A DNA stretch of 64,000 nucleotides, taken from the NCBI GenBank assembly GCA_008632985.1, contig QPGO01000131.1, forward strand, positions 1-64,000, in the 5' to 3' direction. Of the stretch, positions 13,290 through 64,000 are shown piece after piece. The notes beneath the pieces were generated by a model, which worked only from the letters and a program-made list of their open reading frames with translations, was not told where the DNA came from and made no database searches. Source of the stretch: Psammoneis japonica. Lineage: Eukaryota. Within the stretch, counting starts at the first letter, position 1, and each line of letters begins with the position of its first letter. Both the position numbers and the translations under genes were made by a program.

Positions 13290-15810
13290 TGTTGCAAGTT
13301 GCAAGTCTTTGTAGACACGGTGCTGTCTGTCACATGTCAAAGCTCTGTCAGCTCTAGCCACTGCAGAGACCTTGATCCCGCTGTTCTTGCAGCTGACTTC
13401 CTCCCAACAACATGTTTGCAAATCTGTCCAATGGCCATGCCTTTTTGTCTGAGACTTGACCATCAACAACTTCAACCACCCGCATGGTGCCATCCCGGCA
13501 CACAATTGCATTGACAGAATAAAATGGGGCATCAAGAAGAGAAGCAACTGATTCAACAACACCTGGCACTCTGATTGCTCATCTGGCGCGCACACTTTCT
13601 GGCCAAACACAAAACAGCGTTGCTCGGCATCGGGAACAAAGTCTTCAACCTTGCGCACTGCAATTCCGCCTTCAATGTCACCACAACACTTCGCGATCAG
13701 TTCAACGACTTCTGTGGCTTCGTCGACAGAACCAGCAATTGACCCACATCCACTGGTGTTTGACTTCACATGATCTTTGACAAAGTGCTGGCCCCAATCA
13801 AGCTTGGCTGCATTCTCCTTCAAAGAATTGTCATTGGGAAAGAATGCAGTCTCTGGAGTGTGGTCCTTGCAAAGCTCACACCATCCTGGCAGTGTGACAG
13901 CTGGTGCAGTCTGCGACACTCGTCAGCGCTTTGCCTCCTTTGGGCTCGATCTTTCGCACCATTCCTGCGCAGTCCTTGGGCGAAAGCATCCAACTGCAGT
14001 GCAGAAGCATCTCCACTGGCTGATTCTTGGCTTGGGTTTGAACTCAAAAGCCAATTCATCAAAGTCAAAGAGCAAGGCCTCTGCCCCTGCTTCCTTCAGG
14101 GCTTGGACAGGGACCCATGCAAAAATGCACACACTGGAGATGACAATCAATTTCTTGGCAGCAGGCACAGCAGCAGCTGTTGACACATGTTGGTGCTTTG
14201 GAGACATTCAGCTGACTTTTTGTTTTTGTTGCTGTTTTTGCAGCCCCCCCTTGCCCCTTCTGGCTGGGGTGCTTCAGATCACAAACAAGCACACAAAGTT
14301 CTGTTTCAACTGTTGCCAAGAGCCAAAAGAGATTTGTGATTGTGTGCATCATTGCATGTTCTTGCCCGCTGTGGTGCCTTGACTCTCTTGTGAGTTTCTT
14401 GGTCTTTCAAAAGTGACTTTGTTGTCTGACCACAATTTGACCAAAGGCACATCACAACAACAAGTGAGGGTCAAAGCAAGCAGCAAGTGAAGAACAGCAA
14501 CAACAAAAAATTTTCACTTGTTGCCACCAGCAGTCAAGTTGTTTTCTAAAAAGTTGGACAAACCTCCCATGCTTCTTGACACTGGCAGAGTGTGCTAACA
14601 TCAAATTTGAGAAAGGTGTGGGTTTTTGAGTTCCCTTTGCCTGTTGCCCAGCACCTGAGCAACAAGCTGTCACAGAAATGGAGTCAATTTGGAATTTTGC
14701 TTCATGTCCAACAACCACTCTTTGCTTGCCAATGAGCAGTGCACATGAGCTGCTGCAAAAATGACCTGCTCTTCAGCTGCTTTAGATTTGGAGGGACCTG
14801 GCAGTTTTCCCCTTGTTGGACAACACATGGAATGAAGTTGTTGAAAAGAGCTGCCTCGGAAGCTTTTCAAAAATGAAAAGGTTGGAGTTGACAAATTGTG
14901 AAGTGCACGCCAGTCGCCAGTGGATGTCTTTTCAATTTAATTGACAACAAAGGAAAGATGGCAGTTTGTGAAGGATTTGAAGTGAAACTGGAAATTGACC
15001 CAGATTTTATGTTGAGGCTTGTCAAGGGTCAAGCAGCTGGAACAATTGAAGGCAAGCAACCTGGCAAAGAAGGTGCGACAACCTGCCCAAGCATGTTTTG
15101 GGTGAGGGCATGACAAATTGTTGCAAGACACCTTTGTGTCATTTTGGTGTGGCGGTTCTTCCGCAACACTTGCAAGTTAGGGTCAGTGGCAAATTCATTG
15201 GTTGGGCACACACCAGAGAGCAACAGTCATGCCACGACTCTTGCACAACTTTCATGGCCCAATCTAATTTCAAAATTGGCACACATGCACTTTGGTGCAC
15301 ACAGTTTTGATGGGAAAGCAGAGTCCTCCCCACTGCCTCTGGCACCCAGTTGAAGAAAAAGTGTCCAATGTTGTTTGTGGAAACAAAAGTGGTTGCATGG
15401 AGCAACGTTGATCTTCCAGTGGCAGTGGCATCTGCAAATGAGGGAGAAGACAATGCTTGACCAGCAAGAAGGCTTTTGCCAAAAGTGTTGTGTTGAGCCA
15501 GTGAAAGGATGTTTGCCAGTTTGCTTTGAAAAAGGCTCATTCTTGGTGCATCTCTGGTGCTGTGAACATTTTTCATCTTGCTTGGGGAGCAGGGACCACC
15601 CTTCTTTTACTGCAAGGAGCAGCAGCTGGAATGCCAAGAGAGCTTGCAGAAATGTGCTCCAGATTGAGCCTTGCTCCCTAGCATCCTGTTTGTTCAGACA
15701 CTGGGCAGTGCGTTTTCTGCCGTTCTGGAGTGGAGAAGCAAAACCAGGCAGGAGAAGAACCAGGGCACAATGATCATTCACTGGACTTTTCTCCACCAAA
15801 TCAAACAAGG
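13290..15810. other. TpA-depleted, TpG/CpA-rich island of decayed sequence
   Basis: Only scattered TA dinucleotides over 2.5 kb versus several per line in the flanking genes; CpG is also low in 14000-15800. Confidence 0.85.
13354..14207 (-). pseudogene. Hypermutated pseudogene of a bacterial-type ATP-grasp (DUF4343-like) protein
   Basis: Reads LLHCSWMLSPKDCA...LTSVADCTSCH.LPGWCELCKDHTPET...LDWGQHFVKDHVKS...DIEGGIAVRKVEDFVPDAEQRCFV...FYSVNAIVCRDGTMRVVEVVDGQVSDKKAW. This matches the family pattern YRGWML...HxLPxWY...TPET...KDYVKS...EGG...RxVEDF...ExRYFV...ExGDGQVSD, with Y replaced by H/C. Confidence 0.75.
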
Positions 15811-15963
15811 ACAGAAGGGCTAGTAAAATGTAACAGGAACGGAACTTAATTCAACAAGCTTGTTGACTTAATAACCTGCAGCATTGTTCTCCCGAAAAGA
15901 GGAAGGTTGGTGCGGGGTTACAACATGACCATCATCTAAGCAAGTGCCAACACCCAAGTGCTC

Positions 15964-17307
15964 TTAGAGCGGGGAGTCACCAGCCTTGGTTTGATTGAGG
16001 AGCGCGGTAAGAGAGTCACGATACGCATCACACGCGTGGTCTCCAAGCATTGTCGTTTCCATGTACAATTGACGCATAACCTTCATCCCACCGTGCATGG
16101 CTCGTCCGCCAATGACAGATTTGTGAGCGCAGCTCTCCCATAGCGAGACGACCCGCCCGGGCACAAAAAGCTCGATTTCCTGCAGCTCTTCTTGGTTGTG
16201 CTCGTCTTTATCGATTTCAGCGTCAAGGAAGTCTGTTAGTTCTTCCGGCTCCATCAACAAATGTTCGTCGTACTTCATCAGATCAGCAAAGTAGGTACGA
16301 GCGGCCTTGAAACTGTCTGGGCTAAGGCCTTTTTCGTCGAGCTTGGAATCAATCTTCATGAAGAGTTTGTGCAACATGCGCAGATTCAACAAGGACATGC
16401 GAGGGACACAATCGGTATTGTTCACCACGGATGTAATGTAGGATTGACAATCCATGCTGGCTTGAAACGAGGCACAGGCCGGAGTTGCAAAAGCATAGAC
16501 TTGGAGGTCCAGCTTAGGGAGACGGTCCTTCAGGAAAATACCCAACAGAGATGATACTCCTGCACCCAACGAGTGACCACACACAACCAGCTTGTAATTC
16601 GTCGGAATGAAGAGATTAGTGATCATATGAAGGGTGTCTTCGAGCATCAAGTTTGCTGCATTCCACATTCCTTCGTGACAACGAATGGACGAATCGCACA
16701 GCTCGTGGGGAATGGCCTTACCAATTATATCGGTCAAGACATCACTCACTGTTGAAGTTCCCTTGATGGACAAGACGACCTCTTTGGATTCGTGATGAAC
16801 AGCGATGAAATGGCCGACTCTTCCAGGCTCTGGGAACGTATCGTGGCGAATCAAGAGGTAATCCAAGGGCCGCAACTTGTCACTCAATTCCAAAAGACTG
16901 TCTTCATATGCCCATTTGGCAAAGTTAACGTATTTGCAGAGCTCTTCGAGTTCCTCGACCTTCACTTTTTCACCTTCAGCTTGGAACCTTCTGTCCTTGA
17001 AGTCTGGGTACAGATTATCGATTTCGTTCTCCAAGTGAACCATGCTCATAAAGCTGGCATACAGCTTAAACCATGGCATGTCATCAGGAATTAAGTCTTC
17101 ACTCTTCTCGTAAGACAGTTGAATCATCTCTTTCATCTTGCTCCATATCACCGCGGGCGAGGCCAAATCCTCGGTGCCTTCCTCATCATCTGATCGCCGT
17201 TTCTTGATCCATTTCGGAGATTTCTTCCAAACCTTTCGCAAGATTACAACCGTTGCAATAACAATCACAACGGTTTTTGGTGTCACGGATGCGGAGAGTC
17301 GACTCAT
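15964..17307 (-). CDS. Class-3 lipase (DAG-lipase-like) with N-terminal membrane anchor
   Basis: Intact 447-aa ORF; VVLSIKGTSTVSDVLTD, CHEGM, VCGHSLGAGV (GxSxG), AFATP, VVNNTDCVPR, DHACDAY. Confidence 0.9.
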   Translation of the reverse strand: MSRLSASVTPKTVVIVIATVVILRKVWKKSPKWIKKRRSDDEEGTEDLASPAVIWSKMKEMIQLSYEKSEDLIPDDMPWFKLYASFMSMVHLENEIDNLYPDFKDRRFQAEGEKVKVEELEELCKYVNFAKWAYEDSLLELSDKLRPLDYLLIRHDTFPEPGRVGHFIAVHHESKEVVLSIKGTSTVSDVLTDIIGKAIPHELCDSSIRCHEGMWNAANLMLEDTLHMITNLFIPTNYKLVVCGHSLGAGVSSLLGIFLKDRLPKLDLQVYAFATPACASFQASMDCQSYITSVVNNTDCVPRMSLLNLRMLHKLFMKIDSKLDEKGLSPDSFKAARTYFADLMKYDEHLLMEPEELTDFLDAEIDKDEHNQEELQEIELFVPGRVVSLWESCAHKSVIGGRAMHGGMKVMRQLYMETTMLGDHACDAYRDSLTALLNQTKAGDSPL

Positions 17308-18440
17308 GTTGACACAACAAAGTCAAGTCGCAACAGGCACGATACTATTCTTCGTCGATAGAGAGAATAGAAGGTTCCAAGGTGACGAATGCGTCGATCG
17401 CATTTTTCCGCAGTCGATCGCGATCTTTCCTCGTTGGACGTGCGCGGTCGCCGGATCTTCCGCGCGAGAGCTGCTTGTGGGTCGCGCGAAAAGATTCAAG
17501 ACGTTCGTCGATCGTCGAAGGTACAGTACTTCTATCTCTACTACATAGAGCTAGAGAGAGGAGTCTCTCTTGAAAGCCTTCTTGCCTCATCCTTTATGCA
17601 GAAGCACATTAGAAAATGAATAGGGCGCCTCTACTTTCGAGGAGAGCCGGCTACGGACAAATGATTCTACCTGAGATCTAGCATTGCAGTGTCGTCCAAG
17701 AGGAGATGTGGCTCGTGCATGAAGTGATCACGTGTTTCGGCATTTCTTGATCTTCATCTGTTGCCAGTTTTTTCAACTCACTTTGCGCTCACAGTGGTGA
17801 CTGTACAAGAAGCAAGAGAGCAGGAATTGTCTCTCCGGCATGCTTCTCCTCGCCCTGTCATCAATTCCACAGTTGTGCTGTGCTGGTCGAGTTCTGGGAG
17901 CATTTCCGCCTTTTCGACCGTGGTTGCTAAATAGCTGTCAATAACACAGGCACAACATCTCAGCACGCGCTTTCGTCGCTGCCATCGTCTTTAATTCTGC
18001 CAATCTATGGCTCCATCCTTTCTACCTCGGCAAGCTCATGGAAGAAGGCAGGACGCTTTTCGCATCGGCATTAGATCCTCGCTGAAACAGTTTCCGCCTT
18101 TCAGTAGGTTGCTTCCTCCTTACTTTTATTTGAGCGACACAAGAACCACAAACGACTTACACGTTCCTCAACCTGAACCAGCTCAAAGAAATGCCAGGTC
18201 CCAAACTTCAGTCGCCCTCTTATCTATCCAACAGGACAGGTATCGTGTACTCATGACTGTAAATGAAAACAAGAGGTTTCGAGGGCAGTAGCTTCAAGAT
18301 GCGGTGCATTGCAACGCTGCGTCAAATGCGCTGTAGCAGAGTGTCCAGTTTCCACTAAGCCCTGGTGGGCAGAGGAGTAAATGCCATGGTCGTTGCCCCC
18401 TTTTGTTTTGCGCTCAATATATTGTAATATTGAATACTTC

Positions 18441-19765
18441 TCACGAACAGTGCGTGTTGGAGAATCCAAGGTAGTGTCGAACGCTAACATCCACTGCGTA
18501 GAGCCGGCAAACGTCTTGAATCAATTTATGATGCGCTGTCTTTTCCTCCATTCGGAGGTCGTCCATATCTTGCACAAGCTCCGTAGTCTCGTTGTCATTG
18601 CCCTTGCTCTTCCGTTGATTTTGGCGTATCGGATCGCGCACCCCAAAGGTGGATGCAACACGATTTAAACTGGACAAGTCAAAAACTGCTAATTCGATAT
18701 CGAAATTTCCAAGTGGGCGAGTAAGAAAGACTGCGGATGGAATTAAATGCTCGTTCCAAAACCCGTGTTCCTTCAAAGTTTCAACGATACATTGAACAAC
18801 TGAAGCAGCGATATCTCGTTTGTTTCTATTTCCGAATGCGCCGTAGTAAGGCATGGTTCCAAATACTCGTTGCACCCTTGACATCGACGCGTGCGTCTCA
18901 TGGAAATGAGCTGTCCGAGCGAAGACAGGAAACGGGAAACTGGGTCTCGAATAACAGCATACACAACATCCTTCTTCTGACGAAGGCTTCGCTGCTCCTC
19001 TTGTCGAGATTTCAATTCGCTGAGATAGTCTTGAGTGACCGATCCAACACGTCTCTTTCTATTTCTTGGATTCTTGGGTGGTGTCAAGTAATCTAGAAAG
19101 AGCTGCCATTGGGTTCTCGAGCCAGTCTTGGGAATCGTAAATGCTGTAACACTTTCAACATCTGTCACACGCGAAGTATATGGGAGTTGCAAAGGCGTAG
19201 TGGCATCCGACAACCAATTATTCACTTGCCACGACCAAGAATCAAACTTTACACTTGGATAGTCAGCTGCTATAACTTGCTGAAATTCAAATCCTGGCTG
19301 CTGACTTTGAAAGAACTTTACCGGACGAAAGTACGAGCAACATGAATGGTTGCTAATGTTCGTGCTATCCATAGCGGCTGTTTTCGAATCTATGATTCGA
19401 CAAGATTCAAACACGTTCTCGGATTCGTTGAAAACCATGTCGTGTTGAGTAGAATCAGGCTCGCTTAGCACATTCGTTTCTTCTCGCTCGAGTAACTTCT
19501 GGTGTTTCATGAAATGCAAGGTTTTGAACCACAACAAACTGACAATCAACAAAAAGAAAATCAACCGAGCAATCCAATAGCCTCTCATAGGATGGCTCTC
19601 AGATATATCAGTATCATCACGACTTAAGCTCTCTTGCGCACCTGCTTGCAAAGACAACAATGATTCTTCCTCATCCTTGCGTGAGGAGTCTTGCCCGCGC
19701 CCACCACGCGGTGCATCTGTGTGCTTATTTTCCTTGCGCAAATGGCTAGTTCTTCTACGTTTCAT
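18441..19765 (-). CDS. Type II membrane sulfotransferase-family-2-like protein, frameshift near 18800
   Basis: TM helix LIFFLLIVSLLWF; 5'-PAPS-like IPKTGS and 3'-PB-like VIRDPVSRFLS; continues in ORF 18441-18884 (NEHLIPS...LYAVDV). Confidence 0.6.
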
Positions 19766-20093
19766 GATGTGATCAACAGACACAAGGTTTCAGGCTTATA
19801 GCTTAGAAGGTGGGGAGCGCCAAGGAGTGGTGCTTGTGTGTTGTGGGCAAACGCCATGGTGACAGCGGTGGATTATTTTTTCTGCGATCTCCGGTCTTCG
19901 ATCTTCTCATTCTGTTCTGTTTCCGTTCAGGCTAATGTGCTTTTCCGTCTTCAGCACTTTTCGATTTCGCTCGCTCGCTCGCTCGTTTAAATTTCAAAAA
20001 GAGTTGTACGTTTGTCATTTTCACACAGGGAAAAGCAAAAAAGCAGAAAAGCGCAAGTCAAAGCACACAAAAACAAGAAAACGATTCAGCGCC

Positions 20094-21839
20094 ATGATAC
20101 AGCCGGCTGGGGCCGTCGCACAGAGTGTTGGGAATGGACAAGGAGTAATCGCCTTGTTGGATCTCCCAATCAGGAGCAGTATAAGCCTGAATGGGCATTC
20201 AATAGTTCTCCAACGAGATGATTTTGTTGCTATCGACGAAATACCTTTGCCCTCTTGTGATGGTGGTGGAGATAAAACATCGTGCTTTTACTTGGTCACG
20301 ATTCGTCCGGGGCAGAAAGAGGAGAAGGCTTCATCCATGGGAATAACAACGGGTTTTGTGATTGTAAGAAATGGGTTAACTTTACACAATGGCTATTGCA
20401 TGCTGCTGGCAAGAAGGTTTGATTCGCAAACAGAAGAGGTTTCTTCTCTCCCCCTTGACGACGCGTCCGCATCGAACTTGCTCGAGACCATAGCATCCAA
20501 TCGCATGGAACAGCAGAGAATCGTGTCGTACAATAACATTATGAAGAGCTCAGTACAATCAAATAATTACGATTGGGTACACCAGACCAATTTCGTTTCA
20601 CCAGAGCTGCTAAAGAGCAGAGGGCTTTCATCCGGAGACAAGGTTGTTCCTGGGACATTTGAGATGGACAGTGATACTGAATTGAAATCACCAAAAGAGA
20701 ACAATAACTCAAAGCCACGCGAGGCTACTGTAGTGGATGGAATATCAGTAAACTATCCCCCGGTTCCCGTTTTCTTGGACTCGCATGCTTTGAGAACAAC
20801 TCGGCATGACGGGACCAGACGATACTTGTCGGCACTGGCGCCAAGCGAGAAGACTGCACTCTTTGTCGGCAGCACACCACCCGCCAACCTCGTCTTGGAG
20901 CGTTTGTTAAAGGTCTACTTCAATGACGACTGGAAGAGCATACTGGGAGACCTGCAATTGTCCTTTGTGTTGTTTGTGTACCTGCAGTGTTTGTCTTCGA
21001 TGGAGCATTGGTACGTATCCTGTAGTGACAAGCCTTGTAGATTCAATTTCTGCGGCTTAAAGCTTTACTCATTCGTGCCGTATTCTTCTCTTACGCTGTT
21101 GATAGGAGAGATTTGATAGCCATGCTGTCGTGTGTACAGCTTGATCCTTCGTCAGTCACTGAATGGCAGTTGGCATTGTATGGGGAGCTCCTGGCGTTGT
21201 TGTGTGTTCAAATGTCGTTTATAGAGCAAGACTTATTTGAGGTACGCGCTTAGTATATGGTTGATTTCTCTCGATTAAATGTATGACAAGCTTTGCCTCA
21301 CAGTCCTCCTTCGTTTTTGGTATTCGCTCTGGCAACCATAGGACATTGAATTGTCGGGCGACAACTTCTTCGTGCCCGCATTGCGCCGTTTGATTGATTT
21401 ATGCTCTCGTGTTTCGGACAAGGATGATAAATTGAAAAAGAGTGTTGATGATTTGTCAGTAGCCATATCCAATAAATTTCCAGTCGAGTTGTTACCTGAT
21501 GAGACGCCGTTGTCCGACCCTGACAGTTTGTCAGCATCGAGAAGAATAGACGCGGACACGGAAATGGAGGATGCAGAAGCGTTCTCGGACGACGAGGATG
21601 GGCCAGTCATTGTAGCTAGTGAAGAAGTGGAGGCAGCCATGGCTCGTCCTCAGCCACCAGTTACGAATAAGCTTTTGTATCCTGCAGAACACGTCGAGTC
21701 GTATCCATTGCTTTTTGCATCTCTCGCACCCCGAGAAGATGTCCTCATGGCTTGTGCTCGCATTCTAGACGAAGCTAATGATGTTACGTTGGTACGACAA
21801 GCTGCCGCTTATCTAGAAGAGGTGGAAGCCAATAAGTAA
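20094..21839 (+). CDS. AAR2: AAR2-like U5 snRNP assembly factor; introns about 21011-21105 and 21242-21341
   Basis: LLDLP N-terminus, RRFDSQTEE, ILGDLQLSFVLFVYLQCLSSMEHW, DNFF, DDEDGPVIV; splice sites visible. Confidence 0.7.
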
Positions 21840-21967
21840 ATTGATGAATAATAGAAACTAGAGTTGATGAAAAGAAAGTCTACCGTATGAAAGTAGCCGG
21901 ACATGCCGCTTCCACTTACTGTATTGTTTCGGCCGAGAAGAGACTGGATTTTCAATTTCATCCCATT

Positions 21968-23146
21968 TTATGGCGCTGCACCAAAAATCTCTTGCTTGGT
22001 CCCCTGGATAGCCTCGTTGGCAAGTTCGCTCGTGGCAAGGTCGACAACTTGACGACACGCTTTTTCAAGCCCCTTGGTAGCTTCGTTGCTTTCCGTGGAC
22101 GCCGCGCTCGAGGTTGTCGATGCCTGTTTGACATACATGGGATTGTTGCCGCCTTTGGCAGCCGCCCCAACCTTGGCAGTGGCAGACGTAGCAGTCGCAC
22201 TCGTGAGCCCCCCATACATGGATCCAGGCTTGCTGCTCGCCCAAGCAGACAAGTCCGTGGTTTTGATTTTGGCAGTGGCCTCGGCTAATCCACTGTTCAA
22301 GTCTTGCTCCTTGCCAGAAGCCGAGCCTCCCAAGGTTCGAATCCACAAGTAATCTTGGGTCAGCTGCTCCATGACCATTCGAGCACTGGCACTCATGTAG
22401 TATTCCATACGCAACTCATAATAACGATTCCAACAAGATCCCCACTTTTCGAGTCGCAGCTGTTCCGACGTAACCACGCTGCCATCGGGACACTCGTTTG
22501 CCACGGGCGACGTGTAATCGGGCGGATAAGCCCGAAAGGCCTTGAGATGAGGAGTCGACTTGGCGAGCGATCGGAGCGGATCCATGACAATGGCAACAAA
22601 AGGATTCCCGTGAGGGTCTTCGGCGCGCTGCCACTGAAGTTGCGTGCTCAAATCCGTTTGGGATAAAAAGCAATGAGAATGCTGTCCGACTTCAAAAGGA
22701 TGAGAGTGGTACCATCCCATGAATTTCTCTTTGCGGCTCTTTTCTAGACACTCGCCCAGCGCAATCATGTGATTGACGACATTCTCGTCATCGGCAATGA
22801 CTCGTGTTTCAAACCCTTCGATTGGTAAAGGAAACGCGTCCGTGACGATGAGCGTTTTGGGAGTGTCTGGATCAGGTCGCCCCAACAGCATACCCATGAC
22901 TTCAATGGGATTTCCGTTTCCCTGCTTGATTCCCTTTTCAACGCCAGAGTGGCAGTGCATCATGATTTTCGTCAGAGCCGACGGAGAGAGCGCGACCTTG
23001 TCAAAGTACTTGGCCTCGTTGTTCCACGGGCAGTTCTTGCGCAATTCGTTCAGCTTGGATTCGTCGAATGTGTACCGGGCATTTGCGACATTTTCTGTCT
23101 GCTGAGGCTGTTCACTAGAGGGACCAGAGACTTCTGGGGCTGACAT
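21968..23146 (-). CDS. CSN5: COP9 signalosome subunit 5 (JAMM/MPN+ deneddylase)
   Basis: Intact 392-aa ORF; EVMGML, DAFPLPIEGFETRV, GWYHSHP...LSQTD JAMM motif, AIVMDPLRS, AFRAYP. Confidence 0.92.
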   Translation of the reverse strand: MSAPEVSGPSSEQPQQTENVANARYTFDESKLNELRKNCPWNNEAKYFDKVALSPSALTKIMMHCHSGVEKGIKQGNGNPIEVMGMLLGRPDPDTPKTLIVTDAFPLPIEGFETRVIADDENVVNHMIALGECLEKSRKEKFMGWYHSHPFEVGQHSHCFLSQTDLSTQLQWQRAEDPHGNPFVAIVMDPLRSLAKSTPHLKAFRAYPPDYTSPVANECPDGSVVTSEQLRLEKWGSCWNRYYELRMEYYMSASARMVMEQLTQDYLWIRTLGGSASGKEQDLNSGLAEATAKIKTTDLSAWASSKPGSMYGGLTSATATSATAKVGAAAKGGNNPMYVKQASTTSSAASTESNEATKGLEKACRQVVDLATSELANEAIQGTKQEIFGAAP

Positions 23147-23384
23147 GATGATGATGATACTGTGGTATGGTCGATAGAACTAGCTCAGTGGTTGTCGGCA
23201 ACAGCAGCAACAGCGAGTGAACAATAAAATAACTTCCAACTTCATGAGATATAGCGAGTCCCGAATACGAGTCCCGAATACTTTACCAAAATGTTGGTGG
23301 TTTGGTTCATTCGGGATTCGCTTGAACGAACTGATTTTGACATGACGACACCTGCCTCATTCTCACTGTTGTCAACCGATTGAC

Positions 23385-24621
23385 TCTATGGCTCCAACCT
23401 CCCATAGAAACCATTTATATGAAAATGTTTGGCATTAAAATGTGCACATTTTTTTGAGTTTGCATGGCACGCATGATCTTGCCTTGCTTGGAGCTTGGAC
23501 CATCAACCCTGACGCTGACTTTTTTGTTGCAGGAGCGCTTTGTTGCAACAAAAAACATCAGAGAATGATGGGAAACAATCACGGATCCAGAACCGCTGGA
23601 AGCCTTCAAAAAATAATTTGTGTGCTTGTCATTGACTCACAGATGGACCATCACAAAAAAAAAATTCTCAGCGGGGTGACAACGACGAGATCTGTGGCGC
23701 TCTTTTTGACACATCAAATGACCCCTGCTTGCATGCACAAAAATTAATGGATGGTTGATTGAAACCCACGCAGGATTGAAGGGCACATGGCTTTATGTCA
23801 TCAAAGCATTGAGGTCATCACAGAAGTGAAAACAAAAAATGAGCTGCTGTTGTTGCTGTTTTGTGCAGCTGACCAGCTCACTTCTCTTCTCAGCGTGCCA
23901 TCATTGCTTTGCCAGCACCACTTGAATCTGACTTGGGTCAAAGCACAACTGAGTCAGAAGACAGAGCAAACAGGAGTGTGAGGAGGAGCAATGATGACAC
24001 CGCTGCTTTTGTTCCTGAGCGGCATTTTGGGAATTGGCATGAGTGAGTGCTGCCAACACTGCACTTTTTGTTGAGAGCCCACCATTTGCTGTTGTGTTTG
24101 AAAGAAGAAAACTCACACATTTTGTTCTCACCCACACACTGCATTGCATGGTGGACTCTTGTTTTGTGGACGAGATGAAACAGCCCCACCCCTCCTGTCA
24201 ACCAGCCGGCCTTTTTTGGCACAACAGTCCAAGCGGCGCTGCTGATGGCAAATGAAAAAGACACCCCAACCAAGCTTGGAGTGTTTCAGAGTGGGGTTGG
24301 CAACAAAATGCTCCAGTCGAGTGTCACAAAAGAGGAAACATTCGATGACACACACACAGCAGCACCTCTGCAAAGGGCCCAACAGAGAGGATGCTGTGGC
24401 AAGTGTGGCTGATGTGATCACAAGATTGCAATCAGAGCACTCTCAAGGGGTGCAGATTCTTGATTTCAGGTTTTGGAAAACAGAACTTCAAGGCCTGCAA
24501 GGACACCCTTTGTCTTTTTCAGAAGTGGAGCCAGCGGCAGAGAACATTGGGGTAAAGCAGCGTGCCAAAACATGCTTGCAGATAAAAGAGGATGATTAAT
24601 GGGAGGGTTGGAACCCACAGA
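23385..24621. mobile_element. Putative non-autonomous TIR element with TpA-depleted interior
   Basis: Left tctatggctccaacctcccat (23385-23405) vs reverse complement of right end tctgtgggttccaaccctcccat (24599-24621); interior 23430-24590 nearly TA-free. Confidence 0.45.
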
Positions 24622-24909
24622 CACGTTGTTGATAATCTGACTTTCGTGCATTGACCATGATGCAAGGTGGGATTGTAGCAAGGTTCTGGAGCGCACGTCT
24701 CGGCTTTCTGTCACGTCCCAAGTCCCAAGAATCGCCAGTGGGCATGCGAAGCTTCTTCAATTACTAATCTGGATCGTAGAACGGGCCGATGGACAGCAGA
24801 AACCTATTCCCAAATCATGAAACTAACAAACGAGTAATGATCACTATCTCTTACGCACTACGTGTTCATTGGACGACATTGGACATGCATTTCATACAGT
24901 GCTGTATAC

Positions 24910-25675
24910 TCACTCCGCCTTTTCTTTAGCAATGCGACGTCCTGCCAGACCAAGAGAAAGAAGAGACGAACCCACTGAGATTTGGTGGATTCCAAAAATC
25001 ACGCCGACAATGAATAGGGAATAGACTGCAACATTCAGCAGCACCATCACGCCCGCACCAATGGCAGCAAGGCCACTGAAGAGAACCGACCCCCAACCAG
25101 GCAAGTCACGGTTGCGCCATGCGATAGCAATCCGGTGCAAGCCATCTCCGACGCACATGCAGGCAATGTAGAATGTAACGAAAAGCATCACTTCATCATC
25201 AAAGTACTGTAACAGATAGGCAAAGTAAACTTGCGCGAGACCCAACAAGAAGGATGGGATCTTGAAGCCCTTTTCGGCAAAAAAGAGTCCGACAATGTTG
25301 GCGCACCCGACAAACAGCAACGAAATGCTAATGTACCATTCCACAAACTCGCTAGCCAAAATGGGAGCAGACAGGGACAGGATTCCTCCAAGGAGCTTGA
25401 TGATGCCAAAGGCAAGCAGCCACTTGTAGTTGGTGGTAATCTCTCGATCCGCCTCTTTCACATCAATCAACACGAAAAGCATGCTTTCGGCGCCTTCTTG
25501 GGCGAGACTCGGCCTTTTTGATTCGGTAGTCTGGCACAAAGAAGACAAAACGTGAACAGAAATCCCAGTAAGTAAGTTTACCGAGTCGGGTTTCTCGGAG
25601 AACGGAGAAGTCCACAACACCAGATTTTCCAAATCTGCATGAGCCCGCTTTGGCTGCGCATGTACGTACCGACAT
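24910..25675 (-). CDS. HdeD/DUF308-family multi-pass membrane protein
   Basis: WLLAFGIIKLLGGILSLSAP...GDGLHRIAIAWRNRDLPGWGSVLFSG...VGVIFGIHQISVG; about 6 TM helices; probable short intron about 25531-25581; start uncertain. Confidence 0.7.
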
Positions 25676-25956
25676 TTTTGAGTGATACAAATCTTGAAAG
25701 GAAGGGAAAAGGAGTAACAGCAGCTCTTATTTTTCTCTTAGCGATGCAATGGGCGCCAGTTTTCGTGTTCCTTCTCGTCAATACCGTTTGTTGTCACTTC
25801 ACCAGATGGTCAATAGCAGAAGCGGGGCGAGGAAAAGATTTGGTGCAAGCTGTAACACTTTAGACGCTATCATATGTTCAACCTAAGATCTATAGATAAT
25901 CATAAATAGCGCTATCAATTTTTGTGTACTGGTCGGCGGCATGTTTCTGTCGATTC

Positions 25957-30734: not shown

Positions 30735-30738
30735 ATTT

Positions 30739-31351
30739 CACCGTCCGCGAATTTTTATGAGTTATGTATATTTATATTAATACAACGGAAATTTTTGTCA
30801 ATGATGTTATGTAGTTTTTAACGGCTATCCGTTTCATTTAGTCTTGTTTGGCGAACAACATAATACTGTTTATAAATTATTTATTCATGTGCCTTTCTAT
30901 GTTTTGAGTCGTGAGGGCTGTTGATGACTTATGATGACTTATGATGACTTATGATTACTTATGATGACTTATGATGACTTTTGATGACTTATGATGACTT
31001 TACTTAGGAAGTCGAGTGTGCGGTTCCCGTGCGAAGGACAGCCAACGGGCTGGTATGTATGTCAGTTTGTCTGTGGACACTGTTGTCTTGATGACTTATG
31101 ATGACTTATGATGACTTTTGATTACTTATGATTACTTATGATTACTTATGATGACTTATGATTAGTTTTAACGAGTTTCCGCGACCAACTCTCCATTGAC
31201 ATTTCACGATTAAAAACATTGGCGAGTTTATTTGGCGAGCACAGAATGTGTCTTATCGCTAAAGCAATATGAACCATCATAACATATATATATATATTTG
31301 TCCATTGGATTCTTATAAATAGCATATAGTAATGAAAATTCGCGGACGGTG
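30739..31351. mobile_element. 613-bp AT-rich MITE-like element with CAC-initiated TIRs
   Basis: CACCGTCCGCGAATTTT at 30739-30755 and exact reverse complement at 31335-31351, imperfect match extending to about 50 bp; no matching TSD seen. Confidence 0.8.
30921..31163. repeat. Two blocks of 10-bp tandem repeat (ATGATGACTT, variants ATGATTACTT/TTGATGACTT) separated by a spacer of about 85 bp
   Basis: About 8 units at 30921-31000 and about 7 units at 31088-31163. Confidence 0.95.
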
Positions 31352-31470
31352 CTGCCCCCACAACTTGACATGATCCAAGATCCGCCGCTACTAGAGACTA
31401 TGCGAACGCATCACGTTCGAGTTGCAACCGTTAGAGAGAGAGCTGAGATGATTGCTAACCGTTGCGCAAG

Positions 31471-56883: not shown

Positions 56884-57239
56884 TGTTCATCCGGGGAAGG
56901 ATACACCAAATGTTTTGCTATGGGTGATCCTTCATACCGACCGGTAGACCGAAACGTTAAAATTATGTAGTTCACTCTCGTTCTTCGAAATCAATTGCAT
57001 TGTGGCTGCTCAGATTCTCGGTCTCCCACCACTGCAGGCTCCGTATTATGGCTAATGCGCGTTACCATCTTGTGACTTTCATGTCTGCATGCATCAGCAC
57101 GTACAGTATCATTACTCTCTGGCACGTAAAGGTCAGTACCGGTACAAGTAGTACGGAGCAGGCACAACGGCGAAATTTCAAATTGTGAGCTTGCGGCGCG
57201 GGTAAATAGTCTAAATCCCGCCCCATGACTCTGGGACAA

Positions 57240-58301: not shown

Positions 58302-58439
58302 TGAACAGATCCACATAGGATTTATGGTTCTTCTACCATAGCTTCTACTACAATTGCTCTATCTAGCAGCAGAAATACGATTGTTCTAGAAACTTGCGTT
58401 GCGGCACAAAAACATACATTCGCCAATGAATTCCGAGTC

Positions 58440-61400
58440 CAACTTGATTCCTGCGGTGGTGCGCAACACCAAGCAGGGCTCGCCCTTGCACACAGAGATC
58501 CATTGAACCAGTGACATGACTGTGTCCGTGTCTAAACAGCCACATTAGAGTCAAAGAGAGTGACAGGTGACAAAGTCTGTGACCTCTTTTTCTGGTTGTG
58601 CACATCGTGTTCACCAGCACTTGTTTGTTTGTGCTGTGAGCAGGTGTGACACCCCTCGTCCCATGAAATCAGCTCTCTGCATTGCCAGTCACAGGGGCAG
58701 CATCCAAAAATCAAATTGGAGACAGGAATCCAGAAAGATTCTGGGAAGTCATTAGCTTCTTGGAAACACTGGCAAAGATGCTGGCACACCAGTTTTCCCC
58801 AAGCAGGTTGTTGGTGCAAAATGCAAAAAAGAAGCTGGCACAGGGAACATGGGGGGATTTCTCTCCAGCTGAAAAACACAGCCAACAGTGGCACACTGAT
58901 GCAGCCAGCCATGTGTGAGAGAGGGAGAACAGTTGCTGCTAAAAACAAACCTGGGCACTTGAAATGTGGGTGTTTTGGGGCTCAGGAGGTGGCATTGTTG
59001 AAGGTGCTGTGCTGGGTGGTCACAAGCTGGTGCTGGCACAAAGCCAACAGAGACAGCAGAACCATCAGCCACTCCCCCCTTCTTCCTGGTGCAGGAGCTG
59101 CCAGAGTGGTGACAGACCTGCAAACCAGGAATGGTGATGACACGTGAGTCTCAAAGAGATCTGCTTGCAGTCTGCTCATCCTGTGCAGTGGTGTGCCTGG
59201 TCAGCCAACACCCTCTCCTGATTTGGCATGTTGAAAATCAACAATTTGGGTCACAAACAGAACAAAAAGTGGGGTGACAATTTGCTGATGAAATACAGAT
59301 CAAACTGGATGACTCTGGGGAGAGGCACGTGCACCAAAACATGCAAAAGAAGGGCTGTTTTGCAGACTCCAGTGAACAGAAATGTTGACTGCATGCAGTG
59401 CCCCATTGCGACATGGGCATGGCAGGCATGCAGTGTTGACAGCCTTGGTGAGGTCATCCCTTGGGTCAATGACATCAGAAATGTTTTCAGCAATGAAGTG
59501 CCCTGCTGCTTCCTTCCAGCCACAGATGACAAACTGCCACGGGATGTTGACATGGCATGAGCACTCAGTTTAGAGTGCAATTTTGTTTGTGATCTCATGG
59601 CTGGTTGATTGTCAACAAACAATGCAGCAGGACTGACTTGGGAAAATCCAAGTTTCTTCTTGAGGATGGAATGGAAACACAAATCATGTGTGTTGTTGTT
59701 TGGTGGTGGCAGCACCAGCAGAATGAAATTTGGCCTCAGTCAATCTGGTTGCCATCATGGATGGCATCTTGCACCAACATGATCTTGCACCAACAGGAGA
59801 CAGCAGCACTGGCTGACTTCTTGCAGCCACACCCAGCAGCAGACTGGTGGTTGGAAAGATCATTGCCATGTGCAGCATCCAAGAATGCAAGCAATTGAGC
59901 GAGGGAGCTGAGGGAGGGAATTGGTGCAAGGGAGCTGCAAGAAGCTGTGGGTGGGGGAGTTGGGCCTGGCTCCTGGCTCAGCAACAGACATTCAAAATGA
60001 CACATGGGCAACATGGAGTCCTTCTTGAAGGACTTCTTGTGTTTGATGTCCCAACACTTTGATCCTTGAAAGCAACTTTCCATTCCCTTTCAAGCTGTGC
60101 AGCATGCCAAGGCAGGTGGTGATGCAAAGTTGGAGGAGGTTGTGATGGCACTCTGCCGACATGAGGGCAAAGCATGCAACAATCTGTCAAGAAGGTTGCA
60201 AGAGCTAGAACCTTGTGTTTCAGCAAGTTCTTTGATTTCCAGGGCCCTCTTCCAAAGGACCAACACAGGAGCGCAGCTTGGAAAGAACTCCATCACTGGC
60301 AGAGAGCCATTTGACAATCTGAGCCAGATTTGTTGGCATCTGATTTGAGTCAACCATGACTCTTGAGTGCCCAATTGACACAGCTGTGACATGACATTAA
60401 AGTGGAGTCATCATGCTGGTGCACACCAATGCCATTAAATTTGGTGCACAGAGACCCAGACACTTGAGCAGCATGACATCTTCACGGGCCACCCCACAAC
60501 CACCTGGGGCAAGCAACAAAAAATGTCCACTTGTTGAAGAGGAAAAGGGTGTGCTTTTGCCCTCAAACACAAGTGCAAATGCACTTGCAATGAATGGTGT
60601 TCCAGAAAAGGAGAGAGCTTGGCATCATTCAAAATCCCATTGATGTGGTTTTCCCAGACAACACTCTGCTTTCAGAAATGGAGAGCAGCAATGCCAGACT
60701 GCATGTCTTTCATCTCATGAGCTCAAGCACATGCTCTTCTTTTCATCTGTGAGTGGTGGGACAAAAATGACATGTTCTGCCACGAAGGCATGCTGGAGCT
60801 GTCAAGTGTCTGGGTGCTGCACTGGACAACAGTTTCAAACTCAGGGTTGGCAGCATGTCATGAAGTTGTCAAAGCCCAGCAGTTGAAACAATTTGTGCAC
60901 CTGCAATCTTGTTGCAAGTGGTGAAAACAGGCACACCAGCACAGAGCCACCACGTGAGACATCTGACGTGCAGGTGCAACTGAACAACTTGGCAGTGGCA
61001 AGCTCCACTCCAAACATTGGATGCAATTAGAGTGTTTCATTCTGCATGAATGAGTCTTGGAAAAGTGGTTGCCAATGAAGCAAAACTTGTCAACTGAAGT
61101 TTCTGTGGATTTGGCCAGGAAAGCTTGCCATTTTGAGCTTGTTGGGGAGATGAACAACCACCCACCAGCCCTTCACAGTGCCAAGCATGCTTGGCAAGCA
61201 ACCTTGACCCAAGATGTGCAGGATGAGCATGGTGGGATGAGCATGCAGAGGCTGGATTTCAGATTGCCAGAGCCACCAGGACCAAGGTCCAGATGAGGGC
61301 CACCAGGGGTCCAATGCTTTTTGAAAAAACTGTCAGCCAGCAGACCTTGAAGTTTTGTTTTTCAAAAAGTGAAAGACCCAGGACTGCTCACAGCCATGTT

Positions 61401-62000
61401 TCAAACCTTGCTCTGCACTCTCCACATTGCAAGTCATGAGGTCTGAGGTCCAGACAAAAACCACTGAAGGTCTGCCACTTGACCCTTCAATCACAGGACT
61501 TGAGCAAATCTCCAAGGGTGGAGATGTGCTCACTTGCATTGCAGATGTGTTAAATGAAATGTTTTCAGACACACATGGGTGACAAAGAATTCTCAACATT
61601 TCTGTTTGGAGTGTGCATTTGCCAAACATCTGGGGAACCATTTTTGCAATTTAGAAAGTTCAATGTTGACTTTTCACACCAGCTTTTTTGCAAGCCACAT
61701 GCATGAACAGAGAGGAGCTAAATCCCAACCTTTGACAATGGCGGCTGTGATGAGTTGCTGTCTCACAAATGGAGCAACAATGCCACACCCTTGGAGCAAA
61801 TCTCTGCTGGTGGAAATTTGTTCCCAACAAGCAAAGGCATCTTGCACACTTTGCACAGATTGTGCATGATGACATTTTCAATGCTGTGTTCATTGTGTTG
61901 TGATGCAAATGTGCGGTGTCACAAGTTCCTCAAGAAGCAAAGTGCTCCGGTGGTCAAAGGATTGAAAAAACAAAACATTTGACCTTGAGGTCTGAGATTC
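58440..62000 (-). mobile_element. Heavily mutated Ty1/copia (CoDi-like) retrotransposon relic, RT/RNase H region
   Basis: Minus strand gives SSCNLLDRLLHA..SCR..AITTSSNFASPPALACCTA*KG...KCWDIKH (about 60030-60210; cf. FSYRxLLGxLLYAYVTCRPDxxYAITTLSKF), FLDAAHGNDL (about 59855-59885; cf. DAAHxNDL) and FHSILKKKLGFSQVSPAALFVDNQPA (about 59600-59690; cf. LRSILxELGFxQxxPTxLYxDN). Limits approximate. Confidence 0.75.
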
Positions 62001-62054
62001 ACACAAAAACCATTGGAGGTCCAACACACACATTTGTGAAAAAAAAATGTTGAA

Positions 62055-62721
62055 CCTTCTGACAGAATTTGAACAAGAATGACTCGCTCTTGCTCTGCCC
62101 CTGTCATTCAAGCATTGGTGGTGTCAGGTGGACATGGCGCAAGCAGAACTCTGGCCCACTGCAAGATCTGGTGCAACACCTTGCTGCTGTCTCCATGGCA
62201 GACAAGTCTCCATGCAGAGACCATCACAGGTGCCCCTGTGAACAATGAGGACATGTGTTCCAGGGTCAGGAACAGTTTCATTTTGGTCTGGCCAGGTGGA
62301 GGTGCCTGGTCTCATGCCTGTGATGACACGCCCAGATGTTCAGACACCCAGACAGCTGAGACACACAGTTGGTGTGACTCGAATCCAAGCCCACTCGCAC
62401 CAGAATGCACCACCATTGTCACCAACAGATCACTCCACTCCCCAACACAAAAACCATTGGAGGTCCAACAGGCATGACACCAGGCACCTCCCCCTGGCCA
62501 AACCAAAAGTTGTTTCTGACCCTGGAACACATGTCCCCATTGTTCACAGGGGCACCTGCAATGGCCTCTGCATGGAGACTTGTCTGCTGTGTAGACAGCA
62601 GTGAGGTGTTGCACCATGTCTGGGCTGGAGCTCTGCTTGCTGTGTCCACCTGAAGTCATTGACACTCAAATGACAGAGACAGAGCAAGAGTGAGTCATTC
62701 TTGTTCAAATTTTGTCAGAGG
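62055..62721. repeat. Long inverted repeat (arms about 62055-62321 and about 62468-62721, spacer about 145 bp)
   Basis: For example caggtgcccctgtgaacaatgaggacatgtgttccagggtcag vs ctgaccctggaacacatgtccccattgttcacaggggcacctg; also direct repeat acacaaaaaccattggaggtccaaca at about 62001 and about 62445. Confidence 0.92.
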
Positions 62722-64000
62722 TCCAGACAAGTGAAAAGGTGTTGGAAGTCCAACACCATTGGAAAAACTGCAGGGTGGACCTCAAGGGTTTTGGCTCAAA
62801 ATGCAAAAGGCCTCAAACTCCTCTTTTTTGATGACAAGCAAGCATTGTGATGATGAAATTTGAGCTGTCTGAAGGCATTGCTTTTGACCCTGTTGCTCCT
62901 GTTGGAAAGAAGTGTCGCTTTGGCATGGGTTCTGTTGTTCTGTTGCCAAGAAACAATCCGCGTCAATCTGGCAGGAAGAATTTGTTCAATCATGAGTGGG
63001 GGGCACTGCCTGTGTTGACACACATGCCAGACCAAGTTGATGGCAAACACCCCATGTCAATGTTGAACAAAACCCATGTGGCAAAGGAGCGCCAAACAAC
63101 AAACCTTCCCATTCAGCAACTCCTGCAGGAAACTGGAGGAGCAAGGAATTCCATTCAAACCCACTGCAACATGTGCAGAACTCAACACTCTGCTGCATCA
63201 AAACAAACAAGCTGTTTCTTTTTGCTGGACTGCAAACAAATCAAAGAGACTTCAGATGGGTTGGATTGCTGGGGTGTCAAACATCTTTCAATCACCTCCC
63301 ATGCCAGTCAATGCCACCCAAGGTTCCCACACAAAATGGCGCAGAGCAAAATTCAAAATCAACATCATCATCAACAACATGGCCTCAAGCTCCATTGCAT
63401 TGACTGCTGGATGAATGAAATGAACAAGGTGTTGTGTGCCAACACATGCCATGCTAGAAGATCTTGAGTGGCAGTCATGAAAAAATGCAGCTGGGGCCAT
63501 CCCCAGCCAAACCACAAGAGAAGACATGCTCAACAACATCAACCGGAGTGCCAGAAACTGACAAACATCAGCAGCAAGAGCTGTGCACACCAGAGATGTC
63601 AACATCAAAAGTGCAACATGTGGCTTGCATCCAACAAGACACCTCTCCACAGCCTGCAAAGAAGGCTGGTGTAAAAAGGAAGGCAGGGCAATGAAAACAT
63701 CAACAATGGCTTGATTTGAGAGCTGCTGGGCCTCACACCATGTCAAGAAGCACCCTGTCAACTGCAGCGCAGATGAGCCCATCAATGCAATGGCAGCTGC
63801 AATTGATGTGGATGGCAAAGTGAAGAATGCTGAAAGAGTGCGATGTCAACAGCCAACACAGCCGTGTCATCACATCCATCTCAGAGAGTGCAGTCTCCAT
63901 GTGAAGTGCACCACTCAAGCTTGAATGTTTTTGTGCATGACAGATGCAGCCATGGACTTGACAAAACCAGCAACAGACCAGAAACACAGTGAGGTGCAAA

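Follow-up and report, generated by a model that had tools for sequence, protein, structure and literature searches.

The window, the 64,000-nucleotide stretch analysed here as a whole, is part of a gene-dense, intron-poor nuclear genome of the diatom type, in which gaps between genes are occupied by islands of 1.2 to more than 5.5 kb that have almost no TpA. Observed/expected (O/E) dinucleotide ratios, computed across the 64 kb from sliding 500-bp windows and from per-island counts, bear out every island listed in an earlier note on this DNA. TpA O/E lies at 0.04–0.12 in six islands and the first ~270 bp, as against 0.58 in the remaining 45.6 kb, with the background expectations drawn mainly from coding sequence. 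The longest run without TA measures 599–1086 bp in the islands versus 204 bp outside, and TG and CA reach O/E values of 1.3–1.95 compared with 1.15 elsewhere, all with an unchanged G+C content of ~48%. Judged from TA positions, the island edges are abrupt (~50–150 bp wide), and both the flanking genes and an adjoining MITE-like repeat retain TA. Per-kb counts in islands versus outside agree with the scarcity of TAA (2.0 versus 8.2) and TAG (1.2 versus 8.8) that had been remarked upon, with TGA at 24.4 versus 19.3.

The islands and their contents

At the window start, where a TpA-poor stretch had been suggested at about 1–300, lies the cut edge of a further island (1–274), with no TA at positions 13–274 (CpG O/E 1.07, TG 1.73, CA 1.76). 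Island 1 (13290–15810; TA O/E 0.06 over 13400–15750) has sub-zones with CpG O/E of 0.54 (13356–13981) and 0.10 (13982–15678), and carries on the minus strand an ATP-grasp C-terminal relic (Pfam R2K_3, PF14243; 13357–13578) that scores 28.1 bits against a cut-off of 26.3, or 22.7 bits when scored in the read-through frame. Island 4 (33590–35850; TA O/E 0.06 over 33700–35800, CG 0.28; a 1086-bp TA-free run) has minus-strand VOMI relics (PF03762; 33950–34506), one at 34111–34506 (33.6 bits, cut-off 25) and one at 33950–34237 (17.5 bits). Pfam domains were sought and none found in island 2 (23430–24590; TA O/E 0.04 over 23500–24550, CG 0.33; a 757-bp TA-free run), island 5 (44950–46190; TA O/E 0.05 over 45000–46150, CG 0.22) and island 6, which is cut by the window end (58440–64000) and shows the most complete conversion (TA O/E 0.04 over 58500–64000, CG 0.10, TG 1.95, CA 1.80).

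In public run X1, a contig of 22,169 bases with a word depth of ~61.6 covers 12500–26522 with one differing letter and 10 gaps. Since it spans islands 1 and 2 together with the flanking genes, these two islands are real and contiguous with the genes. Both are at single-copy word depth in this run. Run X1 is possibly the assembly's own source sample and is therefore not independent support. Compared with the run X1 and X2 contigs, the window has small indels at 17768 and 17994; thus, either the assembly carries some errors or another strain is represented.

Island 3 (26220–30480; TA O/E 0.12 over 26300–30400, CpG 0.70) is traversed on the minus strand by a chain of five long open frames (26063–30533; 189, 291, 365, 421 and 156 aa with an insertion removed), and its minus-strand frames far exceed chance length (P ~2e-5 per start for 431 codons). 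The chain has 4 Tyr in 1422 aa (0.28%) where 38.5 are expected (P = 1e-12), all 4 in the outermost two frames, which run across the island edges, and His (+18) and Cys (+13) are in excess. This island is multi-copy, with at least one genomic paralogue of ~87% identity. The insertion is a very high-copy 362-bp sequence (28436–28797; word depth ~75,000 versus 61.6), which is missing from a paralogous contig and partially depleted of TA (O/E 0.36, with 0.08 in the island on either side). All seven of its listed variable sites exchange TA or CG with TG or CA, and at sites 28504 and 28731, where the window copy reads TG, TA makes up 99% and 95% of the depth. Outside the island, the MITE-like repeat (30739–31351), with 51-nt terminal inverted repeats and (TGATGACTTA)n arrays, serves as a contrast element without depletion (TA O/E 0.91 over 30600–31400). 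A PIF/Harbinger identity for island 3 was rejected, with DDE_Tnp_4 scoring 16.7 bits, below its cut-off of 24.8; the DDE_Tnp_4-like frame had 0 matches among 1.84 billion representative proteins, and terminal inverted repeats were sought at the island ends and none found.

The earlier note had regarded at least two islands as recognisable transposons. This could not be upheld: no transposon or viral Pfam domain scored above cut-off in 194 frames and the read-through frames, and the frames searched held no reverse transcriptase or integrase relic. The only island domains above cut-off are VOMI and R2K_3, both of cellular type. No homologues of the island frames were retrieved, and a search of IMG/VR gave no relatives of the islands. 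The best explanation is that the islands are decaying intergenic DNA in which remnants of cellular-type genes and of one or more multi-copy elements persist.

Mutational origin and strand symmetry

The islands are not a native composition but bear the marks of mutation. The change proposed earlier, an island-restricted conversion of TA to TG or CA on both strands, is supported by several features of the sequence. In terms of mass balance, the 577 TA and 577 CG that are missing (1154) compare with a gain of 1127 in TG plus CA, an agreement seen again when the six islands are taken one by one. The loss of Tyr from the island 3 frames points the same way, as does an inverted repeat in island 6 (62058–62719), whose arms (62058–62321 and 62468–62719) are 82% identical: 28 of their 37 mismatches are transitions, and seven of the 57 aligned YpR steps are TG-versus-CA double transitions, with ~0.67 expected (P ~7e-6). 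Variation between the window and the run X1 contigs was assessed at the best-supported 40 of 446 places, many of which lie in two small repeats and not in island DNA proper; 32 are transitions, and 28 of these swap TA or CG with TG or CA (47% expected, P = 2.7e-6), TA being involved in 17 and CG in 11. The islands hold 1672 TG and 1774 CA (P = 0.085), and this near-equality means that both strands have been affected. Searches for unmutated relatives of the islands retrieved none, and polarity is therefore read from composition, from the inverted repeat and, at a few sites, from the majority depth of the repeat family, and not from a full substitution spectrum. Excerpts of a mutation-accumulation study of Phaeodactylum tricornutum describe a GC-to-AT bias without a hypermutable region (PMC6604790), which counts against a targeted process; all the same, targeted TpA mutation very probably produced the islands.

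The TA that remains also shows a preference in its flanks. Among 61 residual TA in the islands, 35 are Y-TA-R (10 expected; P = 3e-17) and three R-TA-Y (19 expected), and at mixed flanks the gain in R-CA-R/Y-TG-Y (+377) exceeds that in R-TG-R/Y-CA-Y (+126). Taken together, these survivors and products suggest that the edited A would lie within 5'-TAY-3'. The tally at variant sites opposes this compositional result: of 11 TA-type variants with mixed flanks, eight agree with a purine at the second base ahead of the A, and three with a pyrimidine following it. The flank rule is tentative.

CpG loss, the proposed process and its rivals

In five of the six islands CpG has also been depleted (O/E 0.10–0.33), with a gain in TpG/CpA, a decay that the earlier note missed and that runs alongside the TA loss while being separable from it. 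Three segments (13–274, 13356–13981 and 26348–30349) have lost TA and retained CpG; therefore, two processes are involved, and the TA loss is partly independent of the CpG loss. The CpG depletion resembles the decay caused by deamination of 5-methylcytosine, which cannot remove TpA, and it is most simply attributed to such deamination. According to excerpts of the P. tricornutum study, cytosine methylation affects about 6% of that genome, CpG methylation included (PMC6604790).

The explanation that we consider probable as a whole combines the two. A region-targeted process would turn nearly every TpA into TpG or CpA through A:T to G:C transitions that hit this step on both strands of the DNA, so that Tyr codons (TAY) would become His (CAY) or Cys (TGY); as it would create no stop codons, frames would stay open. 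A second, slower process would convert CpG to TpG or CpA and add TGA stops, and the two fluxes would offset each other in G+C content. Silent chromatin would presumably direct the process, which may have a role in genome defence by disabling unwanted DNA. As the agent, a DNA adenine deaminase (TadA/ADAT-like) is a tentative candidate. More speculative still, and doubtful in its full extent, is the wider proposal that an editing system targeted to chromatin domains in diatoms changes A to G in 5'-TAY-3' on either strand of whatever DNA is silenced, dead cellular genes as well as viruses, in a fast and saturating manner that precedes CpG decay and is independent of it. Shared by a diatom and a chlorarachniophyte, it would be an old and widespread defence of the SAR supergroup, RIP-like but reversed in direction, that perhaps uses a TadA-like enzyme.

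The same outcome might be reached via thymine without adenine deamination, through a modified T in R-T-A or biased T:G repair, because sequence cannot separate A to G on one strand from T to C on the other, and the flank rule is equally readable as T to C in 5'-RTA-3'. In one variant, a TET/JBP-type dioxygenase would generate 5-hydroxymethyluracil (5hmU) that mispairs with G, and in dinoflagellate DNA 5hmU is found preferentially at TpA; in another, T:G mismatches in silent chromatin would be repaired preferentially to C:G, and in E. coli VSP repair drives the loss of CTAG. We nevertheless consider this route unlikely: nothing here points to a thymine modification of this sort in diatoms, a repair bias from T:G to C:G in general would reach beyond TpA, and the sole experimental precedent, a preprint on Bigelowiella natans, hypothesises adenine deamination in its main text (Mettrop et al., bioRxiv 10.64898/2026.01.13.699255, 2026).

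Rather improbable, too, is a single machinery stripping both self-complementary YpR steps, e.g., an ADAT2-like enzyme with DNA deaminase activity on A as well as C; activity of this kind is cited in the preprint's text for ADAT2 of amphioxus and Trypanosoma (10.64898/2026.01.13.699255). It would accommodate the equal losses of TA and CG and the boundaries that the two share in five of six islands. However, the CpG methylation documented in the excerpts on P. tricornutum suffices for the CpG decay (PMC6604790). The three segments that lost TA yet kept CpG also speak against a single machinery, as do the weak flank bias of residual CG, which is the reverse of that of residual TA, and a log-survival ratio that runs from ~1.15 in island 6 to ~9 in island 3 where a joint start predicts a constant.

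ADAR-like A-to-I editing of retroelement RNA, fixed via reverse transcription and re-insertion, has little probability, ADARs being, to our knowledge, metazoan enzymes. Editing of one strand predicts TG without CA, whereas the islands have the two in near-equal numbers; moreover, reverse transcriptase and integrase relics are absent from the frames searched, islands 1 and 2 each have the depth of a single copy, and the domain relics are of cellular type. What fits this route is the preference for U before the edited A that the preprint's text mentions (10.64898/2026.01.13.699255). A similarly slight chance attaches to a foreign origin, i.e., an integrated virus or horizontally acquired element natively avoiding TA and CG, in which the host mutated nothing. 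Exotic DNA would indeed have frames without homologues and sharp boundaries, but a Tyr content of 0.28% cannot belong to a working proteome, the double changes separate the inverted-repeat arms, and at positions where the island copy reads TG most of the repeat family reads TA. Furthermore, the mass balance matches conversion from a host-like composition, the insertion within island 3 is only half depleted, and IMG/VR yields no relative. An artefact of sequencing or assembly (e.g., miscalls at modified bases) or contamination has the least standing. The small indels at 17768 and 17994 speak for it, but the contig from run X1, possibly the source sample, reproduces 14 kb with one substitution, islands 1 and 2 and their flanking genes among them, and the frameshifts, relic domains and insertion in the islands are typical of truly decayed DNA.

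Defence by targeted hypermutation has long been fungal (RIP) and animal (APOBEC/ADAR), and its TpA-specific, GC-ward form has newly been seen in one rhizarian alga only. A saturated footprint in a diatom-type genome would suggest that targeted TpA hypermutation is widespread across major marine phytoplankton, and it would account for one class of intergenic DNA in diatoms that has no homologues and resists annotation. Annotators would then have to treat long open frames lacking Tyr, where they occur in islands of this kind, as dead DNA and not as genes. The proposed process predicts the TAY flank rule, no creation of stops, Tyr-to-His/Cys scars and a loss of TA before that of CpG. Some diatoms are amenable to transformation and gene editing, and knock-outs could therefore lead to the enzyme and to the signal that targets it; a natural DNA adenine editor, if true, would be relevant to the base-editing field.

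Comparison with known systems

In fungal RIP, CpA becomes TpA, A+T goes up and new stop codons appear. The islands share with it region-restricted, dinucleotide-specific transitions, missense-riddled silent or duplicated DNA and sharp compositional boundaries; they differ in that TpA is destroyed at constant G+C and that the change at TA generates no stops. RIP is indicated by a TpA/ApT of at least about 0.89 and a (CpA+TpG)/(ApC+GpT) of at most about 1.03, whereas the islands give 0.083 (background 0.63) and 1.88 (background 1.24). With its indices inverted and G+C unchanged, RIP was rejected, in keeping with the earlier judgement that it does not fit. RIP also acts on duplicated sequence, while islands 1 and 2 are at single-copy depth and island 3 has a paralogue; old island copies may have diverged past recognition. 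ADARs act A-to-I on dsRNA and AID/APOBECs C-to-U on ssDNA. The likeness to these lies in clustered, context-specific transitions against selfish nucleic acids, and the difference in that both strands of resident chromosomal DNA are affected here, not the single strand of a replication intermediate; by dinucleotide counts, the islands also differ from the APOBEC-type TpC/CpC signature.

The islands are a real further case of the TpA-to-TpG/CpA hypermutation recently described for integrated viruses in B. natans (10.64898/2026.01.13.699255). According to the preprint's main text, of the 231 mutations that mutation-accumulation lines acquired in two integrated viral regions, 230 were A to G or T to C, the GC-biased mutations all fell on TpA, the local mutation rate was ~1000-fold over background, and 124 TpA-poor, CpA+TpG-rich clusters exist, many of them unannotated; its authors compare the process with RIP and deaminase immunity (10.64898/2026.01.13.699255). 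As the preprint contains the same process, the RIP analogy and the adenine-deaminase idea, the idea is not new, although no diatom report of TpA-targeted hypermutation was found in the literature searched.

B. natans is a rhizarian chlorarachniophyte and the present genome a stramenopile-type diatom, with mutations directly measured in the former and known from sequence composition and variants in the latter. TA depletion is near saturation here (O/E 0.04–0.12), as against a rho of 0.45 in the B. natans NCLDV region given in the preprint's text; the islands are also small, filling gaps between genes, and the domain relics found in them are of cellular type, with no viral or transposon domain above cut-off, whereas the B. 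natans targets are integrated viral DNA. In most islands CpG decay to TpG/CpA accompanies the TA loss, while the preprint's main text never mentions CpG; similarly, no counterpart to the Y-TA-R survivor bias is apparent in its Results and Discussion. What the two lineages have in common is the change of TA to both TG and CA on both strands, its restriction to discrete regions beside ordinary DNA, and the lasting TpA-poor, CpA+TpG-rich footprint that it leaves.

Composition, setting and identity of the TA-erased islands

The six islands, numbered 1 to 6 in order (13290–15810, 23430–24590, 26220–30480, 33590–35850, 44950–46190 and 58440–64000, the last meeting the window end), have TA observed/expected ratios (O/E) of 0.04–0.12, as against 0.58 in the other 45.6 kb of the window. 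In a sliding-window count many 500-bp windows within them hold no TA at all, and the longest TA-free runs reach 599–1086 bp, compared with at most 204 bp elsewhere in the window. Their borders are sharp, falling within ~50–150 bp, and a further stretch, 13–274, is a seventh island cut off by the window start. TAA and TAG are 4–7 times rarer inside than outside, TGA is slightly commoner, the O/E of TG and CA rises to 1.3–1.95, and G+C is the same as outside. Thus, TA-poor islands with rare TAA and TAG, as the earlier note had reported, are confirmed. CpG is also depleted in five of the six (O/E 0.10–0.33), a feature to which that note had given too little weight.

Chimeric assembly does not account for these islands: a single contig of 22,169 bases (word depth ~61.6), assembled from the public sequencing run X1, spans 12500–26522 with one substitution and thereby reproduces islands 1 and 2 along with the adjoining genes. 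X1 is possibly the assembly's own source sample, and hence this agreement is no independent proof. The long frames outside the islands code for domains typical of eukaryotes—Peptidase_U32, RRM, GRAM/VASt, Lipase_3, AAR2, JAB, the HSF DNA-binding domain and a formate/nitrite transporter—and the closest named relatives of the U32 protein are from diatoms only, i.e., Chaetoceros tenuissimus and Cylindrotheca closterium (62% each), followed by Nitzschia inconspicua and Seminavis robusta (60% each) and Thalassiosirales (50–55%). These domains and relatives place the window in the nuclear genome of a diatom or of something very closely related to one; its G+C content is 48%, it has many genes and few introns, and tRNA and Rfam scans of its whole length gave no match. 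Its sole ambiguous base (N) is 10043, at the edge of a DUF2256-domain frame (9445–10059, minus strand). Relative to contigs of X1 and of a second public run, X2, which are concordant, the window differs by one-base indels at 17768 and 17994, between the lipase and sulfotransferase-like genes; these are either leftover assembly errors or strain differences. An X2 contig omits 139 bases (25531–25669), whose CT..AC ends correspond to a minus-strand GT..AG intron in a DUF308-domain gene (24913–25737); this makes it likely that X2, whose record reads 'DNA?', derives from transcripts. No X2 contig covers an island, but missing contig coverage counts as no evidence and is given no weight here.

The earlier note had recognized transposons in at least two of the islands, an identification that the searches do not support. 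Pfam was searched with 22 island frames of at least 100 aa, 18 read-through six-frame translations from islands 1, 4 and 6, and 115 plus 79 frames of at least 55 aa; neither the frames of either size class (194 in the latter) nor the read-through translations contained a transposon or viral domain above cut-off. A DDE_Tnp_4 match of 16.7 bits was dropped, as phmmer returned 0 hits in 1.84 billion representatives. The only above-cut-off domains are two relics of cellular types, namely VOMI (34111–34506, minus strand, with a second Pfam fragment at 33950–34237 on the same strand) and R2K_3 ATP-grasp, the latter reduced to its C-terminal end (13357–13578, minus strand). The minus-strand frames 13287–13922 and 27339–28631 had no homologues among near-length proteins of a large protein collection, and four island frames had no relatives in IMG/VR, where two loci sharing one 8-residue pattern within a phage-like ORF were dismissed as chance. 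A PDB sequence search with the frames of the VOMI and ATP-grasp relics gave no usable match, a RecA match at ~3 bits per domain being spurious. Neither blastn nor matching in a purine/pyrimidine alphabet detected paralogy among the islands, apart from an inverted repeat at 62058–62719. By X1 depth, islands 1 and 2 are single-copy; island 3 has at least two copies in the genome. Given these mixed domain, copy-number and homology results, the targets are best regarded as DNA in decay, of mixed and for the most part unassigned origin, that occupies entire intergenic intervals. Island 1 is itself composite: the part with the ATP-grasp relic (13356–13981) has a CpG O/E of 0.54 and the remainder (13982–15678) 0.10, both being TA-free, which suggests that the two parts differ in age or methylation state.

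Evidence for a mutational origin

The island composition is a mutational scar and no native property. Measured against the dinucleotide content of the background, the islands fall short by 577 TA and by 577 CG and carry a surplus of 1127 TG+CA, a balance that is true of each island. The minus strand of island 3 bears a chain of open frames whose lengths well exceed those that chance would allow at the island's stop-codon density. In their 1422 codons Tyr occurs 4 times, as against the 38.5 predicted by the genes of the window (P = 1e-12), and each of the 4 sits in one of the two end frames that span the island borders. Loss of Tyr with gain of His and Cys is what conversion of TAY to CAY or TGY predicts, and His and Cys exceed expectation by 18 and 13, making the Tyr-poor frame set of island 3 unlike any working protein set. 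The Tyr-to-His/Cys comparison with family members that the earlier note gave is itself not supported. As TA→TG/CA creates no new stop (TAA becomes TGA or CAA; TAG becomes TGG or CAG), it would leave frames that are long and open yet free of Tyr.

The arms of the island 6 inverted repeat (62058–62321 and 62468–62719) are 82% identical, with 28 transitions among 37 mismatches. At 7 aligned steps one arm has TG and the other CA, double changes of which only ~0.67 would be expected under independent site change (P ~7e-6), and which would result if an ancestral TA or CG had been resolved separately in each arm. Comparison of the window with X1 contigs that are paralogues (~87% identity) or small-repeat copies likewise gave a preponderance of transitions (A>G 99, C>T 93, G>A 69, T>C 83), each transversion type numbering 5–19. 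Among the best-supported 40 of the 446 variant places, 32 are transitions, 28 of them being exchanges of TA or CG with TG/CA (47% expected; P = 2.7e-6) and 17 involving TA. Together, the mass balance, Tyr loss, inverted repeat, X1 variants and near-equality of TG and CA sustain the core proposal of the earlier note, that of an island-restricted TA→TG/CA change on both strands.

The process might still be seen at work in a 362-bp insertion inside island 3 (28436–28797), which has a word depth of ~75,000 in X1, as against ~61.6 for unique sequence, and hence copies on the order of a thousand. Its TA O/E is 0.36, compared with 0.08 in the surrounding island, and in a paralogous contig lacking it 28435 is joined to 28798; this partial depletion and absence from the paralogue fit a late arrival now undergoing conversion. 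All 7 of its listed variable sites are of the TA/CG↔TG/CA type, and at two sites the family has TA in 99% and 95% of its depth where the island copy has TG. The insertion has no tRNA or Rfam match, and a metagenome scan with an exact 28-base piece of it gave 0 matches. Just outside island 3 lies a MITE-like element (30739–31351) whose terminal inverted repeats, 51 nt long and 75% complementary, flank two arrays of the 10-bp unit TGATGACTTA, in ~8 and 7 copies; it keeps its TA and has an elevated X1 depth.

Properties and possible agent of the process

The outcome is a TA→TG/CA change that affects both strands, is confined to particular regions and precedes CpG decay. TG and CA number 1672 and 1774 in the islands, so that both strands are affected about equally, a result that disfavors editing at the stage of a single-stranded intermediate, whether RNA or cDNA. 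The loss of TA is separable from that of CpG, since CpG is kept in the TA-free segments 13–274 (O/E 1.07), 13356–13981 (0.54) and 26348–30349 (0.66–0.72); in island 6 both are lost. By our own arithmetic, the log-survival ratio is ~1.15 in island 6 and ~9 in island 3 and would be constant had both losses started together at steady rates; thus, TA conversion was fast and saturating, and CpG decay slow and later.

The 61 TAs surviving in the islands are strongly biased in their flanks, with 35 in Y-TA-R (10 expected) and 3 in R-TA-Y (19 expected; P = 3e-17), and the remaining CpGs have a weak bias of the opposite sense. Mixed-flank gains of +377 for R-CA-R/Y-TG-Y vs +126 for R-TG-R/Y-CA-Y point to a 5'-TAY-3' rule, in which the edited A would have a pyrimidine after it; this amounts to a changed T with a purine before it. 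However, of the listed TA variant sites 11 are mixed-flank, and 8 of these fit a contrary rule, with a purine two bases 5' of the A. The two flank rules thus conflict, whereas the bias among the survivors is solid. TTAA holds 14 of the 61 surviving TAs (23%, vs 4% in the background), an excess that could reflect an enzyme's flank preference or later insertions duplicating TTAA or TA targets.

The leading candidate for the agent would be a TadA/ADAT-type enzyme deaminating adenine to hypoxanthine in DNA. Bacterial TadA naturally acts on U-A-C of the anticodon loop of tRNA-Arg, which would make a closer match to a TAY rule than the majority of eukaryotic ADAT2/3 substrates do. A route from the thymine side, for instance through mispairing of a modified T or a bias in T:G repair, may act instead and is compatible with the sequence taken alone. 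Returning to adenine deamination, the process might be targeted via silent chromatin and serve in defense, and the CpG decay would be most simply accounted for by 5mC deamination. Cytosine methylation (PMC6604790) and histone marks on transposable elements (PMC4504042) are documented in Phaeodactylum tricornutum. GC-biased gene conversion is ruled out, G+C being unaltered and TA alone affected, as is codon-usage selection, by the loss of Tyr and by a depletion that is equal between the strands and across all frames. Nor are low-complexity or tandem repeats the cause, TRF finding in the islands only two 2–3-copy arrays (44989–45014, 26 bp; 30438–30470, 33 bp).

Comparison with known systems

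ADAR-type and APOBEC-type footprints are ruled out by island composition and strand symmetry. Fungal RIP operates in the opposite direction and its indices are inverted in the islands, which excludes it as the identity of the process. A full-text search of open-access PMC and bioRxiv found no description of TpA-erased islands in diatoms; a mutation-accumulation study of P. tricornutum (PMC6604790) reports mutation biased toward GC→AT, without any hypermutable region, and TpA, TpG, deamination and RIP do not occur in the retrotransposon paper of Maumus 2009.

The nearest match is the TpA hypermutation that Mettrop et al. describe in a 2026 preprint (bioRxiv 10.64898/2026.01.13.699255) on Bigelowiella natans, and in view of it the novelty suggested by the earlier note is not supported. 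As given in the main text of the preprint, two integrated viral regions received 231 of the 302 new nuclear single-nucleotide mutations; of these 231, 230 were A→G or T→C, every GC-biased one lay at TpA, and the genome contains 124 clusters poor in TpA and rich in CpA+TpG; its authors likewise propose adenine deamination, naming an ADAT2 homologue. That main text makes no mention of diatoms, stramenopiles or CpG. The two systems are alike in dinucleotide, two-strand symmetry and island form; in contrast, they differ in lineage, and the islands here are small, nearly saturated and without viral signature, with accompanying CpG decay and a flank bias as features of their own relative to that text. 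Thus, the feature is real and striking, of a kind described once before, and very recently, in what is now a new lineage.
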